Under the pieces are notes generated by a model. It saw only the letters and a program-made list of their open reading frames with translations. It was not told the origin of the DNA and ran no database searches. From Flavobacteriales bacterium (GTDB taxonomy: Bacteria > Bacteroidota > Bacteroidia > CAIKAF01): 64,000 bases of DNA. The stretch is from positions 30,741-94,740 of the forward strand of contig JAKRSD010000023.1 in the NCBI GenBank assembly GCA_022402535.1. Direction: 5' to 3'. The position numbers and the translations under genes were made by a program. This document shows positions 11,290-58,017 of this stretch, one piece after another. The first letter of the stretch is position 1. Every line of letters begins with the position of its first letter.

Positions 11290-12504
11290 ATGGAACAAAA
11301 TTTCATTCTGCTGGCCATTCCCGTTTTCTTTTTATCCATCGGCATCGAACTTTGGTATTCGCGCAAAAAAGGGGCACGTTGGTATAACTTTGAAGACACC
11401 ATTACCAATCTGAATCTGGGTATCGGCAGTCAGGCAGTGGGGATAATGACCAAACTGTTGCTCGTGGGTTCGTACCATTGGGTATATGAAAACGGACGTC
11501 TGTTCGACTTACCCCAAAACCATTGGCTGGTGTGGATTGCAGCCCTGCTGCTTTTTGATTATATCTACTACTGGGCTCATCGTCTGGGACACGAGTGGAA
11601 TTATATGTGGGGTGCTCATATTGTGCATCATCAGAGTACGGAGTTTAATCTTTCGGTGGCGCTGCGCCAGAGTTGGTTTCATAACCTGATTTCGTTTTTT
11701 ATGTTTCTGCCCATGGCACTGTTGGGTTTTCATACTTATGTGCTGGTTGGCGTGGCGGCATTCACCACCTTATATCAATATTGGATTCACACACGGGCCA
11801 TCAAAAAACTGCCTTGGATTTTTGAATATGTGCTGAACACGCCTTCGCACCACAGGGTTCACCATGCCACCAATGCCCACTATATCGACAAAAATTATGC
11901 GGCCACTTTCATTATCTGGGACAGGCTGCACAACACCTTTATGGAAGAAAAAGAAGAACCCGTTTATGGCATCACCAAACCATTTGAATCGCTGAATCCG
12001 ATTTGGGCCAACCTGCATTACTACAAAGAAATGGCCGAAGGCATGAAACGCGAAAAAGGATTCTGGAACAAACTGGCTTTGTGTTTCCGCGGTCCCGAAT
12101 ACCTGGGGAAACTGCTGAATGAACCCATTCCTGAACCCAAACCTGCGGTGCAGACGGCACTTCCCGTGAAGTTATATGTGCTGATTCAGTTTGTGATTCT
12201 TTCTGCCGGACTGGTAAAATACCTCATGCATTTTGAAGAACTGAGCACGTTTTATAAAATCTCGGGCTTTGGACTTATTATCGCCACCACCCATATCTGC
12301 GCCGGATTGTTGGAAAACAAACGCGCTGCCATCGTAACCGAAGTACTGCGTATAACGGCAGCCTTGCTGGTGTTGAACTCGCTGTATTATTTTAATTATG
12401 CCGAGTGGTTTGCCATTATGCTTACCGGTTCCTTGGTCATTACGGCTATTTCGGCGGTTTGGCTGGCATTCAATGTGAAAACGATACGCGTAAACGCCCG
12501 TTAA
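11290..12504 (+). CDS. Sterol desaturase/fatty-acid hydroxylase-family membrane protein with extra C-terminal TM domain
   Basis: Histidine boxes HRLGHEW, HIVHHQS and HHRVHH in the FA_hydroxylase arrangement. About 130-aa hydrophobic C-terminal extension. Confidence 0.8.
   Translation: MEQNFILLAIPVFFLSIGIELWYSRKKGARWYNFEDTITNLNLGIGSQAVGIMTKLLLVGSYHWVYENGRLFDLPQNHWLVWIAALLLFDYIYYWAHRLGHEWNYMWGAHIVHHQSTEFNLSVALRQSWFHNLISFFMFLPMALLGFHTYVLVGVAAFTTLYQYWIHTRAIKKLPWIFEYVLNTPSHHRVHHATNAHYIDKNYAATFIIWDRLHNTFMEEKEEPVYGITKPFESLNPIWANLHYYKEMAEGMKREKGFWNKLALCFRGPEYLGKLLNEPIPEPKPAVQTALPVKLYVLIQFVILSAGLVKYLMHFEELSTFYKISGFGLIIATTHICAGLLENKRAAIVTEVLRITAALLVLNSLYYFNYAEWFAIMLTGSLVITAISAVWLAFNVKTIRVNAR
12448..12504 (+). 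repeat. Left copy of 57-bp direct repeat (3' end of desaturase gene plus stop)
   Basis: GCGGTTTGGCTGGCATTCAATGTGAAAACGATACGCGTAAACGCCCGTTAATTTT is repeated at 13289..13345 with one mismatch (G/A). Confidence 0.9.
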
Positions 12505-13288
12505 TTTTCCCCGATTTATCCATTTTAGCGCTATAAATATAATGGGGACGATAACAAGCTAAGTTGCTCCTGCGTTTGTTAATAGTAAGGGGTAAAAGTA
12601 TAAAATAGTTCATTATCAAGGAATTTTAAATACTTTCCACGTTTACTCATTTATTGCCCTCAAGCCGGGCAGGCTTTTACTTTCTTTATCTCAGTTGATT
12701 TTATTGTTTTTATAGGAATCGATGAGCACTTCGTGGTTGCCTTGCCCAAAGAAAGTAAACAAAGAAAGGGCACTGCTTCCGGAGGCGTTGCGGAGCACCG
12801 GAAGAAAAAGGCTAAAACGCCTCCAATACCGATAGCCATCGGTATTCGCCATTTCTTAACGCCTTTTTCTTCCTACGCTACCGAAAGCAGGGCTTTCCTC
12901 TCCGGACGGCATCGGATTTATTGGCGGGGTTCCCACACGGCGAAAATTCCGTCAAAAGGGTGGGTCAAAAGGCACCACAGGGGCCGGCTTCCCACCCTTT
13001 AGGAATTGAGGCGGATGTGGGTCGCCAAAAATCCGCAGCCTTGATTTACTCCTCTTTGTTTATTTTATTTGGAAGTCGTGAGCTCGGCTTCGCCTCGGTT
13101 TTTTGATTCTTTTTTCATCAAGGAAAAAAGAATGCCCTGCGGCGAGCAGACAAAAGAAAAGCTACTGATTTCACTGAATATTGCACAATGATGTTCTTAG
13201 TTTGACTAATAAAACACTAAAACCATCATAATGCTGGACCTATAATATTTATATGGAAAATGAAAATTAAAGAGATCAAATCAGGAGC

Positions 13289-13345
13289 GGTTTGGCTGGC
13301 ATTCAATGTGAAAACGATACGCGTAAACGCCCATTAATTTTTGCG
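13289..13345 (+). repeat. Right copy of 57-bp direct repeat
   Basis: Near-identical copy of 12448..12504, read directly from the sequence. It overlaps the stop codon of the convergent gene 13334..14011. Confidence 0.9.
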
Positions 13346-14011
13346 GTAAGGCTGCACGCCTTTTCCCAGATAAAAAGCCAAACCAAAATTCAGATTTGGA
13401 CTGACAGTTAATCCTCCGTTGTAACTTTTTAAATTTGCCATTTGGAAATAATTAAAGGAAATGCTTCCAAAACCCGCTTCCATAGCCAAACGGCGTGTAA
13501 AAAAATAGACAATATGGGGCGAAACCCCAATATTAAGTCCAAAAGCTAAGGGATTGGAAGTAACAGCACCATTTTGCTCGGTTTTTCTGAAATTAAACCC
13601 GAATGTAGTATTGAATTGACCTATCAATCCAAATTTAGGGGTAAACATTTTATAATATCGCAGAAATACTCCCGGCAATATAGCGTGGCTATACGCTTTC
13701 ACCTCTGATGGCATAGTGGGAAAAACAGTGTAATCATAGTTCTTATCATAATTAAAACTATACCCAAGGGTTTTTCCGACTACCAGATTATGGGTTACAA
13801 AAAAACCACTCTGTTCTGATATCCAAAAACCGATGTTATTGAGTTCATTTGCTCCTAAAGGTTCGCTTTTGCTGCCCGAACCACCAAAAGACAAACTTCC
13901 CGTAATCAGTTTGGTGCCTTTTTCTATGCGGTATTTTGTTTTTAAGGAATCCTGGGCCGAGAGCGAAAGGCTGCTGCAAACAGCAAGTACTACAACAAAA
14001 ATCTTTTTCAT
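13334..14011 (-). CDS. Outer-membrane beta-barrel protein (OmpW/PorT-like small barrel)
   Basis: Signal peptide (MKKIFVVVLAVCSSLSLSAQ). About 200-aa mature protein with alternating hydrophobic/aromatic beta-strand patterns. Confidence 0.55.
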   Translation of the reverse strand: MKKIFVVVLAVCSSLSLSAQDSLKTKYRIEKGTKLITGSLSFGGSGSKSEPLGANELNNIGFWISEQSGFFVTHNLVVGKTLGYSFNYDKNYDYTVFPTMPSEVKAYSHAILPGVFLRYYKMFTPKFGLIGQFNTTFGFNFRKTEQNGAVTSNPLAFGLNIGVSPHIVYFFTRRLAMEAGFGSISFNYFQMANLKSYNGGLTVSPNLNFGLAFYLGKGVQPYRKN

Positions 14012-14022
14012 AGTCGATAAAT

Positions 14023-14841
14023 TTATAACATGGTTTGGATTAATTCTTTAAACAGACCGGTCATTACTTTTTCGGCTTCGTGGGCGGCTTTCACCACATC
14101 TTCGTGTGATATTTCAACAATTTTTCCTTCCACGCCTAAATCGGTGATGACGCTGATGGCAAAACAGCGCATGTTCATGTGTCGGGCCACGATAATTTCC
14201 GGCACGGTACTCATACCCACGGCATCTCCGCCCAAAATGCGGAACATTTTATATTCGGCGGGGGTTTCAAACGTGGGGCCCTGCACGCCTACATACACGC
14301 CCGTATGCAGTTTTATGTTTTGGGATCGGGCAATCTGCAATACTGAATCCATCAGTTCGGCATCATACGCCTGACTCATATCCGGAAAACGCACCCCGAG
14401 GCGGGTATCATTTTTTCCGCGCAGCGGATGTTCGGGCTGCAAGTTTATATGATCACGGATAAGCATCAGATCACCCACCTCAAAATCAGGGTGCATGCCT
14501 CCTGCGGCGTTGCTCACCAACAGGGTTTCTATGCCCAAAAACTTCATCACCCGCACGGGAAACGTTACTTTGTCCATATCGTAGCCCTCGTAGTAATGAA
14601 AACGCCCCTGCATCACCATTACTTCTTTACCGCCGAGATTACCGAATATCAGATAACCCGAATGCCCCTCTACCGTGGACACCGGAAAACCGGGAATATC
14701 GGTATAGGATATTTTTTCGGTGATGTCCACCTCTTTCACGAGGCCGCCGAGGCCGGAGCCTAAAATAATTCCGATACGCGGAGCCACGGAGATTTTACTT
14801 TTCAAAAAATCGGCACAGGCCTGATACGATTCGTAGGACAT
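14023..14841 (-). CDS. Purine nucleoside phosphorylase (PNP/MTAP family)
   Basis: GIILGSGLGGL phosphate-binding motif, and GHSGYLIFG...VMVMQGRFHYYEGY and MSTVPE motifs of trimeric PNP. Confidence 0.85.
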   Translation of the reverse strand: MSYESYQACADFLKSKISVAPRIGIILGSGLGGLVKEVDITEKISYTDIPGFPVSTVEGHSGYLIFGNLGGKEVMVMQGRFHYYEGYDMDKVTFPVRVMKFLGIETLLVSNAAGGMHPDFEVGDLMLIRDHINLQPEHPLRGKNDTRLGVRFPDMSQAYDAELMDSVLQIARSQNIKLHTGVYVGVQGPTFETPAEYKMFRILGGDAVGMSTVPEIIVARHMNMRCFAISVITDLGVEGKIVEISHEDVVKAAHEAEKVMTGLFKELIQTML

Positions 14842-14991
14842 GGAAAATTTGATTAGGGGACAAAAGTAAGGGTTAAATCAGAACGCTGCGCTCAAAGATG
14901 GATTACAGAAGTATCGGCGATGACCTGTCCTTTTTATCCGTACAACTACTACTGTTAATGGTTATCTGTTAATCATGAGTAAGAACAGTCC

Positions 14992-15012
14992 CAATACTTA
15001 ATACTCAATACT
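14992..15012 (+). repeat. CAATACT-type heptamer triplet (CAATACTTAATACTCAATACT)
   Basis: Same heptamer family as the arrays at 27579..27615 (inverted) and 28201..28299. Sits between the zupT stop and the PNP gene start. Confidence 0.7.
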
Positions 15013-15017
15013 GTTCC

Positions 15018-15833
15018 CTACGCAAACAACAGCAGACTCAACGCCATCACGCCCATACCGGCCACGAGGCCATATACGGCAATATGGTGTTCGCCGTATT
15101 TTTCGGCGGTGGGCATCAGCTGGTCGAGCGAAATGAATACCATAATGCCGGCCACGGAGGCAAACAATACCCCAAAAACAACCTCATTAATGAACGGCGC
15201 CAATAATAGATAGCCCACCACGGCACCCACGGGTTCGGCCAATCCCGAAAGGAAAGACAACAAAAAGGCACGCCTGCGGCTGCCCGTGGCAAAATAAATG
15301 GGCACCGAAACGGCTATTCCTTCGGGGATGTTATGAATGGCAATCGCCACCGCAATGGAAATTCCCAAAGCCGGGTCATTCAGCGCGGCAATGAATGTGG
15401 CCATACCCTCCGGAAAATTGTGAATGCCGATGGCCAGGGCAGAAAACATGCCCATACGCAATAATTTTCGGCGGCGGGCTTCCGCAGCATCCGAAGCAGA
15501 AAAATCGTTCACGTCCTTCGGTTCGTGCGGATTATCGAACGAAGGCACCAGGCGGTCAATAATGCCGATGAGCAGAATGCCGCCAAAAAAAGCCAGCGTG
15601 GCGTATATATAGCCTTCTTTTTCGCCGAGCGATGTGCTCAGAATATGGCGGGCTTTGGAAAATATTTCCACAAAGGATACATAAATCATCACCCCGGCCG
15701 AAAAGCCGAGCGCTCCCGCCAAAAACTGATGATTGGTTTTACGGGTGAAGAGGGCAATCAGACTGCCCACACCGGTGCTCAACCCCGCAAAAAGGGTTAA
15801 TCCGAACGCAAACCATATATTTTGTGTATCCAT
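15018..15833 (-). CDS. zupT: ZIP-family zinc/metal transporter
   Basis: HNFPEGMA and HNIPEGIAV signature motifs of ZupT/ZIP permeases. 8 TM helices. Confidence 0.85.
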
Positions 15834-23830: not shown

Positions 23831-23866
23831 GAAAAGGCTGCCCAATCGGGTGGCCTTTTTTTGTGG
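23831..23866 (+). terminator. Rho-independent terminator (AGGCUGCCC-AAUC-GGGUGGCCU plus U-run), copy 1 of 3
   Basis: 9-bp stem containing two G-U wobble pairs, formable only in plus-strand RNA, followed by TTTTTTT. Directly after the hppA stop. Confidence 0.7.
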
Positions 23867-25449: not shown

Positions 25450-25486
25450 TGTAAAAGGCTGCCAAAACGGGTGGCCTTTTTGTTTT
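25450..25486 (+). terminator. Rho-independent terminator, copy 2 of 3 (variant loop)
   Basis: AAAAGGCTGCCAAAACGGGTGGCCTTTTTGTTTTTT. Same stem as 23831..23866. Confidence 0.65.
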
Positions 25487-25597
25487 TTACATGACTAATA
25501 CTATCAAATATTTGACATTTTCCAGAGTTACAGACTGCTCGAAATCTATATTTAAAAATCGTAAATTCGCAGAAGTTTAATGAACTGAAACATCATT

Positions 25598-25761: not shown

Positions 25762-25798
25762 TAGAAAAGGCTGCCCAATCGGGTGGCCTTTTTGTTTT
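25762..25798 (+). terminator. Rho-independent terminator, copy 3 of 3
   Basis: AAAAGGCTGCCCAATCGGGTGGCCTTTTTGTTTTT, identical stem-loop to copy 1. Confidence 0.65.
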
Positions 25799-25803
25799 TA
25801 GTA

Positions 25804-27542: not shown

Positions 27543-27578
27543 ATGTGCAAATTAGATGGACAAAGTAAGAATTATTAT

Positions 27579-27615
27579 AGTATTTGGTATTGAGTATTAA
27601 GTATTGAGTATTGAG
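27579..27615 (-). repeat. Inverted array of about 5 AGTATYR heptamers (reverse complement of the CAATACT family)
   Basis: AGTATTTGGTATTGAGTATTAAGTATTGAGTATTGAG is the reverse complement of the heptamers in 28201..28299 and 14992..15012. Confidence 0.8.
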
Positions 27616-27697: not shown

Positions 27698-27887
27698 CCT
27701 GCCTATCCCCTATTGCCTATTCCCTTTTGCCTATTGCCTATTCCCTTTTGCCTATTCCCTTTTGCCTATTGCCTATTCCCTATTGCCTATTCCCTTTTGC
27801 CTATTCCCTTTTGCCTATTGCCTATTGCCTATTCCCTTTTGCCTATTGCCTATTGCCTATTCCCCATTGCCTTCCCCTATTGCCTAT
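27698..27887 (+). repeat. Tandem heptamer array of about 27 units alternating TGCCTAT and TCCCTTT
   Basis: Direct reading: TGCCTATTCCCTTTTGCCTATTGCCTATTCCCTTT... for about 190 bp. The ORF-track proteins MPIPFCLLPIPF... are translations of this repeat. Confidence 0.9.
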
Positions 27888-27918
27888 ATTTTTTTACATT
27901 TACGGCAAACGAAGATTC

Positions 27919-28161
27919 ATGCGCATCATTGCAACCATACCGCACCCCAAGGTGAAAATTTCGGTCTTTCAGATGAATAATAAATACCTGCTGAAAATGG
28001 AAGCCGGGCCTTACGAGCAGACCTATAAAATTTACGAAGATGAAATCCAATCCATGGAGCAGCTGCAAGCCCTGTGCAACGAAGATTTTATGAATACTGT
28101 CATCAAACGATTTGAAGCTATGCACAGTGATTTTGAATCCAGCCTGAAACAAATAGTTTAA
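27919..28161 (+). CDS. Small hypothetical protein (80 aa; MRIIATIPHPKVKISVFQMNNKYLLKMEAGPYEQ...)
   Basis: ATG-initiated non-repetitive portion of ORF 27727..28161, located between the two heptamer arrays. Confidence 0.4.
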   Translation: MRIIATIPHPKVKISVFQMNNKYLLKMEAGPYEQTYKIYEDEIQSMEQLQALCNEDFMNTVIKRFEAMHSDFESSLKQIV

Positions 28162-28200
28162 TTTGGCAATTTGAAAATTTGAAAATGATAAAATTGTCTT

Positions 28201-28299
28201 GATACTTGATACTCAATACTTGATACTATTTCCTGATACTCAATACCAAATACTCAATACTTTTTTCCTGATACTTGATACTCAATACTTGATACTATT
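28201..28299 (+). repeat. Tandem array of about 14 YRATACT heptamers (TGATACT/CAATACT) abutting the thiolase start codon
   Basis: TGATACTTGATACTCAATACTTGATACTATTTCCTGATACTCAATACCAAATACTCAATACTTTTTTCCTGATACTTGATACTCAATACTTGATACT, ending 3 nt before the ATG at 28303. Confidence 0.9.
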
Positions 28300-29508: not shown

Positions 29509-29515
29509 AAACAGA

Positions 29516-29650
29516 ACAAGGATGAAAGAACAAAGATTAAGGACTACGTCTGTTTTTCATCCTTGTCCTTTGATCAAAAAATAGATAAATAGAGTAGAAA
29601 CCGGAGTATCAGGAAAAGAATCTTTCATCCTTGTTCCTTGCTCCTTAATC
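29516..29650. repeat. Inverted-repeat/hairpin-rich intergenic element between the thiolase and dehydrogenase genes (AAGGATGAAAGA motif x3)
   Basis: ACAAGGATGAAAGA (29516..29529) pairs with TTTCATCCTTGT (29557..29568) and with TCTTTCATCCTTGT (29619..29632). GATTAAGGAC (29535..29544) pairs with CTCCTTAATC (29641..29650). Confidence 0.6.
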
Positions 29651-33207: not shown

Positions 33208-33294
33208 TTTGTTTTTTCTTTCAAATGTAAATAAAAACAAAAAATCAACGCTATTAAGAATTAATAAAAGCGTAGCGCAAATTGGCTTTCCATT

Positions 33295-33500
33295 ATCCCG
33301 TCCCTAAAGGGACTTCACCGTTTTATCATTCCGGTTTCTACCAATATGTCATTCCTACTGAATGAATGCTAAATCCATTCAAACCCAAACGATTCTACCC
33401 AATAACATGGCGCACATAATGCCCTGTCCCGTCAGGGACAAAATACGGTAGAAACCATTTCCATTCCCAAAACCAAGTGCCTTTAGGTACGCGATGTGTG
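33295..33500 (+). mobile_element. MITE-like repeat copy 1 (about 205 bp, imperfect terminal inverted repeats, three internal hairpins)
   Basis: Starts CCGTCCCTAAAGGGAC and ends GTGCCTTTAGGTACGC (imperfect TIR). Internal palindromes CATTCCTACTGAATG and TGTCCCGTCAGGGACA. Closely matches 38183..38386. Confidence 0.7.
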
Positions 33501-34418
33501 CAATCTTATCATGTGATTTAATATCTCAACCCTATTGGAACTTCTCCAGTAGCATTTTTGATTTTTCGATACGGCTTATATTAGCCCCGATAAATTAATC
33601 CGTTGCCCGATAAACAAGGGAATACAGCATGGACGTTTGGAAGAAAGTAGAATCCAATTTTTAATAGTATTTGATGTGCCGTTTGTAATCGGCATGATGT
33701 GATTCGTGAATTACCTGATTTCGGGCGGGTAAGGAAAGATTGCCGAATTTTAGTACTGAATTGCGCGTTTGACCGAAAAATTCTCAAGGCTATTCCAAAC
33801 AAAAAACAAAGCATTGAATAAAATGAACGCGATTTTTTATAGAGCTTTCATGTTCGATAAATTTTTAAAGACAAAAAACTATGTAAGGTCGAATTCCTAA
33901 TTTAATGTTTAGCTAAAAAACAGGCCTTATCAATATCTTTTTTATCGAAAGAGATGCAACCTTCGTAAGTAATTATCCAAAAAAGTTTATATTGCTCAAG
34001 CCTTACACTATTAACAAATCCGTTAAAATTCAGTTCCGATGGGGTGAACCGAGCTCCGGCTTTATCGACTTCCACTGTGAAAATCGGGTTTATCATTCGA
34101 GATTTATCAAACGGAAAATGAAATTCTTCAAAAAAGAACGCTTTGATTTCCAATTTCTTTTCCAGAAATTAAAATAATAATCCCCAATTTTTTTCAAAGT
34201 TTCTGAAAATCCTATTGCCTTTCCTGTTCCTCCTTATAGGGCTAACCATTCAACATTTTGTTGGAATTTCATTAGTTAATTATACTGCAGTTTTTGATTA
34301 ATCAAACATAAAAACCAGCATCATAGACCAAAAGCAGAGAATAGACAAAATGAATATTCGAAAATGTTTAAAAAATAAAAATCATCAGATTGTATTCTTA
34401 TGATTTATTTACAGGTTC

Positions 34419-38150: not shown

Positions 38151-38182
38151 AGACCTAAACTTATCATTACGTTGTCAATATC

Positions 38183-38386
38183 TCATCCCTAAAGGGACTT
38201 CCCCATTTTTTTATTCCGGTTTCTACCTATATGTCATTCCTACGGAATGAATGCGAAACCCTTCAAATCAAAACGATTGTACTACATCAAACTACGTAGC
38301 CACATGCCCTGTCCCGTCAGGGACAACCTATCGGTAGAAAATGCCACTTCCTCCAAATCAAGTGCCTTTAGGTACGCAATGGGTGT
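38183..38386 (+). mobile_element. MITE-like repeat copy 2
   Basis: Near-identical to 33295..33500 with small indels. Direct orientation. Confidence 0.7.
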
Positions 38387-38410
38387 AAATCATATTATGT
38401 GTCTTCAATA

Positions 38411-38476
38411 TCCCGTCCCTAAAGGGATTACTATTCCAGGTTCTACCATAGCTCATTCCTACGGAATGAGAGAGAG
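38411..38476 (+). mobile_element. Partial third MITE-like copy (5' end only)
   Basis: ATCCCGTCCCTAAAGGGATTACTATTCCAGGTTCTACCATAGCTCATTCCTACGGAATGAGAGAG matches the first about 65 bp of the element. Confidence 0.55.
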
Positions 38477-57544: not shown

Positions 57545-57727
57545 ATGCTCAGCAAAAAACAAATCATAAAATCGATTGATACCCTACCGGAAAATGTTTC
57601 GATAGATCAAATTGTGGATCACTTGATTTATATCGAAAAAATAGAAAAAGGCCTTTCTGACTCGAAAGAAGGCAAAATAAACACCGTAGAAGAGGCAAAA
57701 GTCAAGTTGAAAAAATGGTTAAAATAA
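57545..57727 (+). CDS. Putative antitoxin of type II TA pair (60 aa)
   Basis: Small ORF overlapping the downstream RelE/ParE toxin by 13 nt. Short helical protein typical of addiction-module antitoxin components. Confidence 0.5.
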   Translation: MLSKKQIIKSIDTLPENVSIDQIVDHLIYIEKIEKGLSDSKEGKINTVEEAKVKLKKWLK

Positions 57728-58017
57728 TTTGGACCGACAATGCCATTTTTGACTTGGATGAAATAGGTAATTATATTGCTTTACACTCGGTAAAATATGC
57801 TGAAAAAACGGTTGATTATCTATTTAACTCCGTGTCCATTTTAAGCAGTTATCCGCAAGCTGGAAAAGTGGTAACCGACTTCAATTCCAATGCAATTCGA
57901 GAAATTGTAAGAGGTAACTACAGAATCGTTTATAAAATCATTTCAAAACAGCGTATAGATATTTTAGCTGTTCATCATGGAGCAAGATTCATGGATGATG
58001 AAAGGATTGAAGAATAA
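57715..58017 (+). CDS. RelE/ParE-family type II toxin
   Basis: 100 aa with IWTDNAIFDLDEI...REIVRGNYRIVYKI...IDILAVHH, characteristic of RelE/ParE toxins. Confidence 0.8.
   Translation: MVKIIWTDNAIFDLDEIGNYIALHSVKYAEKTVDYLFNSVSILSSYPQAGKVVTDFNSNAIREIVRGNYRIVYKIISKQRIDILAVHHGARFMDDERIEE

Follow-up and report, generated by a model that had tools for sequence, protein, structure and literature searches.

Genomic islands and prophages that carry tyrosine integrases insert in the 3′ ends of tRNA or protein-coding genes, where a duplication of tens of bases reconstitutes the gene end, and duplications of this size that leave the gene preserved are typical of integrase-mediated islands. Among the closest described systems to the locus considered here are the cis-mobilizable elements (CIMEs), decayed integrative elements that have lost their genes for integration and transfer but keep the attachment (att) sites attL and attR (PMC5704250). 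Here we analyzed a 64-kb stretch of a Flavobacteriales metagenome-assembled genome (MAG), referred to as the window, in which a 778-nt non-coding insert with a 55-nt direct repeat at either end separates a fatty-acid hydroxylase gene from a convergent outer-membrane barrel gene. We propose tentatively that this insert is a gene-less remnant or non-autonomous integrated element, similar to a CIME, that arose by a single crossover at the 55-nt site, a reading to which we assign a probability of roughly 45%.

The locus resembles CIMEs in that its direct repeats include the 3′ end of a target gene that remains intact, in that no recombinase or transfer genes lie between them, and in that related strains have an empty site with a single repeat copy. 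Unlike CIMEs, it has no conjugative or phage context, it occupies the site where two convergent protein-coding genes overlap, and its cargo is a foldback repeat. An integrase-bearing relative using the same att site, the feature that matters most, was found neither in the window nor in IMG/VR, the JGI metagenomes or 36 other loci of the hydroxylase family, and we therefore do not regard the insert as a proven CIME. The negative is incomplete, as the window was the part of this genome that the search covered. With islands and prophages at gene 3′ ends it shares a duplication that reconstitutes the gene end and a precise presence/absence polymorphism; unlike them, it has no integrase or genes of any kind, and nothing here gives evidence of a circular form. 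The junctions are made up of the following features:

11290 to 12504, plus strand: fatty-acid hydroxylase/alkylglycerol-monooxygenase-like gene, 404 aa (Pfam FA_hydroxylase, E = 5.9e-27).
12454 to 12508, no strand: left copy of the repeat, attL-like, from repeat search and sequence; carries G at 12500.
12509 to 13286, no strand: strain-variable non-coding insert, 778 nt, absent from three related contigs (L078, L079 and L080) and partly present in a fourth (L081); no Rfam or Pfam match.
13287 to 13341, no strand: right copy of the repeat, attR-like, from repeat search and sequence; carries A at 13333.
13334 to 14011, minus strand: gene for a small outer-membrane beta-barrel protein, 225 aa (signal peptide, AlphaFold2, Foldseek).

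The two copies of the 55-nt repeat GCGGTTTGGCTGGCATTCAATGTGAAAACGATACGCGTAAACGCCCGTTAATTTT are spaced 833 nt apart and match at 54 of 55 positions, the G/A difference being the sole mismatch. No third copy occurs within the window, and a match of this length in 64 kb, judged by its size, cannot be chance. The left copy contains the final 16 codons and the TAA stop (12502-12504) of the hydroxylase gene, and the right copy contains the stop (13334-13336) and final two codons of the minus-strand barrel gene; as in CIMEs, the repeat thus stands at both ends of the insert and takes in the target gene's terminal part. The first-pass annotation of this DNA had described a 57-bp duplication with one G/A change, its second copy at 13289..13345, around an insert at 12505..13288. 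The duplication and its single change are real, but the repeat is 55 nt long and the second-copy coordinates were slightly off; likewise, insertion with duplication of the target is borne out by the empty sites described below, with the span corrected to 12509-13286.

To place the locus among its relatives, we gathered their contigs through the 90% cluster of the barrel protein and aligned them with the window, a check that the first-pass annotation had recommended. The insert was absent from L078, L079 and L080, which come from three different runs and share 96–98% nucleotide identity with the window; each has an empty site with one repeat copy, matching the unoccupied attB that a CIME leaves visible in related genomes. 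In these contigs the hydroxylase and barrel genes overlap by 4 nt (TTAA), exactly as had been predicted from the window, where the two genes were thought to have overlapped originally at TTAA. The same two genes lie 3 nt apart in a more distant relative (L004, 79% protein identity). Together, the empty contigs and the compact arrangement in this relative indicate that the compact state is ancestral and the insert a later gain.

A fourth run (SRR29362564) provided a partly filled allele. Its contig, L081, reads from the barrel gene across the repeat and then covers 176 nt of the right arm of the insert, with 9 differences from the window (~5%). Across 1199 nt of the right flank of the repeat, L081 shows 0 differences from the three empty contigs, compared to 38 between the window and the empty contigs. 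Since the flank of L081 is identical to that of the empty contigs, the state of the insert has changed without divergence of the flank. From these alignments, the insert is a presence/absence polymorphism within the species, and an artefact is unlikely.

Two versions of an artefact can be conceived, namely a mis-join through the repeat in the MAG, or an empty site and a free 833-nt circle that were wrongly resolved. The window does derive from a MAG, and k=31 contigs break inside the repeat: L006, from the window's own strain, and L077 both stop at 13303. This position is 31 nt from the G/A variant, which is the expected branch point of a k=31 graph if two repeat copies exist, so that the contigs break exactly where a true two-copy repeat would make them break. 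In addition, the G/A variant ties each repeat copy to a different right-hand context, and the junction from barrel gene through repeat into a copy of the insert that has diverged by ~5% is carried by a contig from an independent run. We consider an artefact, which the first-pass annotation had named among the things that could overturn its observation, very improbable. Another k=31 contig, L076, does not break 31 nt from the G/A variant as L006 and L077 do; it ends at its position 1181 (window position 13286), exactly a single base past the left limit of the right repeat, which suggests a different allele mixture in that sample.

The surroundings of the locus vary between strains in other ways as well. 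In a 93%-identical sister lineage (L001-L003), the 225-aa barrel gene is wholly absent (compared with window 12465-14041); homology to the window is lost after the first 10 nt of the left repeat and returns where the PNP gene ends, and the hydroxylase has a different C-terminal tail, LLLNLKPGKLANR. Separately, in empty-site strains (L079 1-2100, L080 1-710) an island replaces the DNA beyond the PNP gene (compared with window 14871-15018). It encodes a HigB-like toxin, a helix-turn-helix antitoxin, a nucleotidyltransferase and a 112-aa open reading frame (ORF), has no similarity to the window, where a ZIP gene occupies this place, and constitutes a second strain-variable spot 1.5 kb from the insert.

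We next considered the age of the insert. Synonymous divergence between the window and the L078 lineage was 0.070 for the hydroxylase gene, 0.071 for GatB and 0.18 for PNP. The divergence of the right arm is close to that of the neighboring gene, which argues that the insertion is old, and ~5% fits neutral sequence inherited vertically since the lineages split. In the simplest history, the insert would have been gained once, long ago, and lost precisely and recently when the 55-nt repeats recombined; alternatively, diverged copies would have integrated site-specifically more than once. Deletion between direct repeats, whether by homologous recombination or replication slippage, is a known process that likewise yields precise empty alleles in an identical background without a dedicated enzyme. 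It covers only the loss, and leaves the origin of the duplication and of the insert to be explained.

For that origin we favor a single-crossover (Campbell-type) event, because the repeats lie exactly at the ends of the insert, both genes are preserved and the empty site has one copy. Foreign DNA would have entered where the hydroxylase and barrel genes overlap by the 4 nt TTAA, through an exchange between the 55-nt chromosomal junction and the same sequence carried by a small DNA circle; a site-specific integrase acting in trans, or else homologous recombination, would have joined the two. Such an event would duplicate the 55 nt into attL-like and attR-like copies, the left preserving the frame and stop of the hydroxylase gene and the right preserving the stop of the barrel gene. 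What remained would be a gene-less element whose cargo is a nested foldback repeat of about 0.5 kb, here called E, that is known at other genomic sites, and later recombination between the 55-nt copies would regenerate the empty site with its overlapping genes. A circular intermediate, a recombinase, loss rather than repeated gain as the direction of change, and any function are inferences; a role as a spacer or terminator between two colliding convergent genes seems plausible. The first-pass annotation had offered att reconstitution as one explanation, and the geometry does fit it, but the recombinase and parent element that it implies were found neither in the 64 kb nor in IMG/VR or JGI, respectively. 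Its second suggestion, the footprint of an excised element, is not apt, since an element excised site-specifically leaves one copy of the repeat behind, and this is the empty allele.

The one mismatch between the repeat copies is in keeping with a crossover. Under this scheme the right copy represents the chromosomal side to the right of the exchange, and its A also stands beside the barrel gene in three further contigs from the same clade. The mismatch also brings to mind a diversity-generating retroelement, whose variable repeat would be the copy at the 3′ end of the gene and whose template would be the copy downstream, given that the only difference is an A in the downstream copy where the gene copy has G. 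A single adenine position differs, the window holds no reverse transcriptase or accessory gene, the target is the tail of a membrane enzyme and not a ligand-binding domain, and the empty-site strains simply have no second copy. With no reverse transcriptase in the window and one mismatch, this possibility is effectively refuted and its likelihood negligible.

Beyond the repeats, we examined the composition of the insert, which comprises the features below. Several of these are defined by comparison with L083, a JGI contig carrying a second copy of E.

12509 to 12647, no strand: left AT-rich arm, GC ~0.34, not shared with L083, whose alignment begins near 12648.
12648 to 13165, no strand: foldback element E; the left boundary and homology to 12926 are shown, and the right boundary is inferred from the outer helix.
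12662 to 12686, plus strand: terminator-like hairpin followed by a T-rich run at the left edge of E, kept in L083 with a loop substitution.
12688 to 12736, no strand: 49-nt segment found in the window and, judging by the predicted protein P0138, in a third copy; absent from L083.
12691 to 12852, minus strand: 53-aa ORF, NCBI hypothetical protein MH137_10030 (MCG9911624.1), a singleton cluster with no Pfam or NCBIfam match.
12746 to 13072, no strand: GC-rich core of nested inverted repeats with a 20-nt closing helix (12746-12765 / 13053-13072).
13111 to 13286, no strand: right arm, also in L081 with 9 differences in 176 nt.

The insert is AT-rich in its arms (GC ~0.34) and richer in GC at its center (~0.54), and it folds far better than shuffled sequences (z = −5.3 on the plus strand and −6.0 on the minus strand); the hairpins listed in the first-pass annotation are indeed present. 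All of this fold signal resides in the core 12746-13072 (z = −6.3 plus, −6.2 minus), whereas the AT-rich arms fold unremarkably (z = −0.2 for 12509-12735 and −1.35). Within the core, the closing helix encloses two long hairpins, 12768-12895 and 12908-13040, built of perfect helices of 9–15 bp, and no relatedness between the two is evident. When the region 12645-13172, which includes the outer helix 12673-12686 / 13152-13165, was folded as single-stranded DNA, z reached −6.7.

We found little to indicate that the insert encodes a protein. Pfam gave no match in any frame, and a six-frame concatenation of the insert had no match among 5.8 billion proteins, a weak negative, as that search also missed the known self-hit MCG9911624.1. 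The only annotated ORF is the 53-aa singleton, which is probably spurious, so that, as in CIMEs, no integration or transfer genes lie within the element. The earlier judgment that the insert has no credible ORF thus holds: this ORF belongs to no family, and the homologous copy of the sequence shows no coding constraint. Comparisons with blastn and blastx yielded no match between the insert and the rest of the window, and we accordingly rejected a decayed duplicate of neighboring genes. An insertion sequence was rejected for want of a transposase gene and because the duplication is 55 nt rather than short, and a group II intron for want of a reverse transcriptase, transposase or Rfam match.

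We then looked for further copies of E. When the longest open frame (12604-12999) was used as the query of an exhaustive phmmer search, two short 'proteins', P0137 and P0138, were returned, both spurious calls on homologous DNA. P0137 lies on L083 in an unrelated context, in which a PPK2 gene and an EamA transporter gene are followed by E. This contig matches window positions 12649-12687 (92%) and 12737-12926 (94.7%), up to the end of the contig. P0138 lies on a 635-nt contig of GCA_041443065.1 and represents a more diverged copy of E that lacks the apical hairpin and is known from the protein alone. The core of E is therefore present at three loci (the window, L083 and the GCA_041443065.1 contig), with one copy in the 64-kb window, while the full 778-nt unit has been seen at one site only. 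Because at least the left part of the core, but nothing of the left arm, is found in L083, the insert is a composite of orphan AT-rich arms and a copy of an uncatalogued foldback repeat, a point missing from the first-pass annotation.

Comparison of the two nucleotide copies suggests that structure has been maintained. Between 12746 and 12895, L083 differs from the window by five substitutions, of which four fall at unpaired positions and the fifth converts a G.U pair to A-U, even though ~70% of positions are paired (simple binomial p ~0.03 for helix avoidance, with the caveat that just one of the two copies supplied the structure). Read in the open frame, two of the same five changes are synonymous and three non-synonymous. 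This pattern argues that pairing, and not coding, is conserved. The substitutions at 12819-12820 break one hairpin from the first-pass annotation, GGAGGCGTT/AACGCCTCC, and the helices of the minimum-energy structure stay intact.

Other collections yielded nothing further, and the rarity of E and of the insert is to be read as rarity within the collections searched. Blastn of the insert found no match among PLSDB plasmids and INPHARED phages, and exact 22-28-mers of the core, arms and repeat found nothing relevant in IMG/VR. A core 25-mer conserved in L083 (12780-12804) had no match among GTDB species representatives, and 59 GTDB loci of the hydroxylase gene family showed neither homologues of the insert nor a duplicated 3′ end. 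A core 24-mer (12959-12982) was also without a match in the JGI metagenomes, a misleading negative, since L083 ends at 12926.

These properties raise the possibility that the core encodes a new structured non-coding RNA, which would be compatible with any mechanism of insertion. Its fold is very stable (z = −6.3), it has terminator-like hairpins, its three copies are diverged and lie in different contexts, and the substitutions between two of them avoid helices, one preserving a pair. On the other hand, the core folds about equally well on either strand (−142.3 vs −141.4 kcal/mol, with 7 and 6 G.U pairs), its helices are long and near-perfect (9–20 bp), more like DNA palindromes, and near-identical strains do without the insert. 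Scans for sigma-70 and Bacteroidota promoters detected no TAnnTTTG (−7) motif on either strand of the insert. Rfam, a check that the first-pass annotation had advised for the insert, was run (release 15) over 12000-14000, over the core with lax filters and over the whole window, and returned only chance-level matches (E ≥ 0.2), with no family matched over the insert, and no tRNA or tmRNA was found. The earlier suggestion of a small structured RNA gene thus fails for known families, there being no Rfam match, no Bacteroidota −7 motif and no asymmetry between strands, and we consider a gene for a new RNA unlikely.

The foldback architecture could alternatively point to a transposon. Like miniature inverted-repeat transposable elements (MITEs), foldback elements and REPIN-like repeats, the insert is non-coding and sub-kilobase, consists of nested inverted repeats, lies between genes (here convergent ones), and has a dispersed core in which pairing is preserved. 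A non-autonomous MITE-like element, moved by a trans-acting transposase or casposase-like enzyme with a 55-nt stagger, would make the repeat a very long target-site duplication. Such a duplication would abut the ends of the insert directly, as observed; the entire insert is a foldback, and its ends have some inverted similarity (CATTTT..TATAAATAT[A/T]AT[G/A]GG). That similarity is weak (score 22 vs 15.6 ± 2.5; 3% of shuffles and 2% of AT-rich windows score as high), which makes terminal inverted repeats doubtful for the 778-nt unit, and the terminal motif is not conserved in L081, where it has two changes. Known prokaryotic target duplications span ~2–15 nt, and a repeat of 55 nt departs from a short duplication of fixed length. 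Moreover, the L083 copy does not have the same left terminus, there is no second copy in 64 kb, three loci being known in all, and no associated transposase or RAYT gene was found. We give a MITE-like origin little credence.

Several observations weigh against a CIME-like element that entered by a single crossover. First, no integrase, transposase or reverse transcriptase was found among the scanned ORFs of the window, including all those of ≥250 aa in the 64 kb. Exact 24-mer searches with the 55-nt site in IMG/VR and the JGI metagenomes revealed no larger element or phage, and the search for an integrase-carrying element with this core, which the first-pass annotation had called for, came back empty there and in the window. 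None of 36 other loci of the hydroxylase family had a 3′-end duplication or inserted element (0/36), which indicates that the site is not a recognized integration hotspot. The 833-nt unit, comprising the insert and one repeat, is to our knowledge far below the size of any known CIME. L083 lacks 12688-12736 and has nothing resembling the left arm 12509-12647, so movement of the 778-nt unit as such is not seen. L081 is a short, low-coverage k=31 contig, apparently from a mixed-sample series, in which a chimeric path through the repeat is possible. Finally, recombination from repeat to repeat accounts for the losses without any activity encoded by the element.

A rival account dispenses with mobile-element machinery. 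An intergenic fragment from a different locus or genome, already holding E, could have been captured once by illegitimate recombination, at a break or by template-switching, with an accidental 55-nt duplication and later ordinary deletion between the direct repeats. This account draws on the composite nature of the insert, of which only the core E is common to L083 and the arms are orphan AT-rich DNA, on the missing recombinase or parent element (64-kb window; IMG/VR, JGI), on the absence of a similar event at other loci of the gene family, and on an arm divergence near the neutral rate. Two features tell against it. The duplication is exact and preserves the genes on both sides, as recombination at a shared site would and a random break would not, and filled and empty states occur on the same background. 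We judge capture of this kind to be on the unlikely side, but with a real share of the probability.

At the opposite extreme, the 833-nt unit might be an active, gene-less, sub-kilobase foldback element of an undescribed kind, integrating site-specifically where two convergent genes overlap, with a 55-nt duplication, and excising precisely by means of a host or distant recombinase acting in trans, or by recombination of single-stranded hairpins. The conserved foldback core would then serve it for recognition or as a functional module, perhaps as a bidirectional terminator or insulator brought in between colliding genes. We regard this stronger form as rather doubtful.

If the insert is a CIME-like remnant, it would be a minimal integrated element, with no genes, att-like repeats and a structured repeat, that is polymorphic in a natural population of uncultured Flavobacteriales. 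The locus would also offer a natural example of overlapping convergent genes that were pushed apart and then rejoined. The foldback repeat family to which E belongs is newly identified, appears to conserve structure, has no entry in Rfam and is nearly missing from the collections searched. Mobility of the insert, if it were established, would suggest a recombination system that acts in trans and has an identity segment of unusual length; otherwise the locus would represent an ordinary insertion-deletion polymorphism of limited consequence.

The hydroxylase protein shares 100% identity with NCBI MCG9911623.1 and just 67% with the hydroxylase of the closest GTDB species representative. The barrel protein corresponds to MCG9911625.1 (MH137_10035), and both NCBI entries derive from an uncultured Flavobacteriales MAG. 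Its translated gene includes a signal peptide, and its AlphaFold2 model is all-beta (pLDDT 81), with OmpA-TM, NspA, OmpX and OmpW as top Foldseek matches in the PDB; signal peptide and modeled fold thus support the earlier label of an outer-membrane barrel. The neighborhood consists of housekeeping genes, including GatB, PNP/UDP phosphorylase, ZIP, LpxK, MazG, H+-PPase, beta-oxidation and polysaccharide synthesis. Among the scanned ORFs, two (DinB_2 and thioredoxin-like) were named through the annotation of homologues.

Elsewhere in the window, a ParE-family toxin gene (Pfam E = 3e-14) lies at 57715-58017, at the edge of the polysaccharide-synthesis cluster. Three tandem-repeat arrays based on 7-nt units surround the ORF 27727-28161, at 27573-27615, 27700-27887 and 28198-28296; their units are AGTATTG, TGCCTAT/TCCCTAT (with 14-, 21- and 35-nt super-periods, ~13.5 copies) and CTTGATA, and a similar array of TATCAGGTATCAAG opens contig L079. 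The spacer between the thiolase and 3-hydroxyacyl-CoA dehydrogenase genes contains a perfect 16-nt inverted repeat (29514-29529 / 29621-29636, 91 nt apart). The family of terminator-like hairpins AAAAGGCTGCCnAAnCGGGTGGCCTTTTT has three copies, at 23832-23866, 25453-25487 and 25765-25799. Lastly, a non-coding dispersed repeat of ~250 nt without an Rfam match is present at 33290-33540 and 38176-38430 (84% identity, 4885 nt apart); it contains the conserved palindromic boxes TCCCTAAAGGGA, CATTCCTACNGAATG, CCCTGTCCCGTCAGGGACA and GTGCCTTTAGGTAC, and its two copies enclose a block of small ORFs without Pfam matches.

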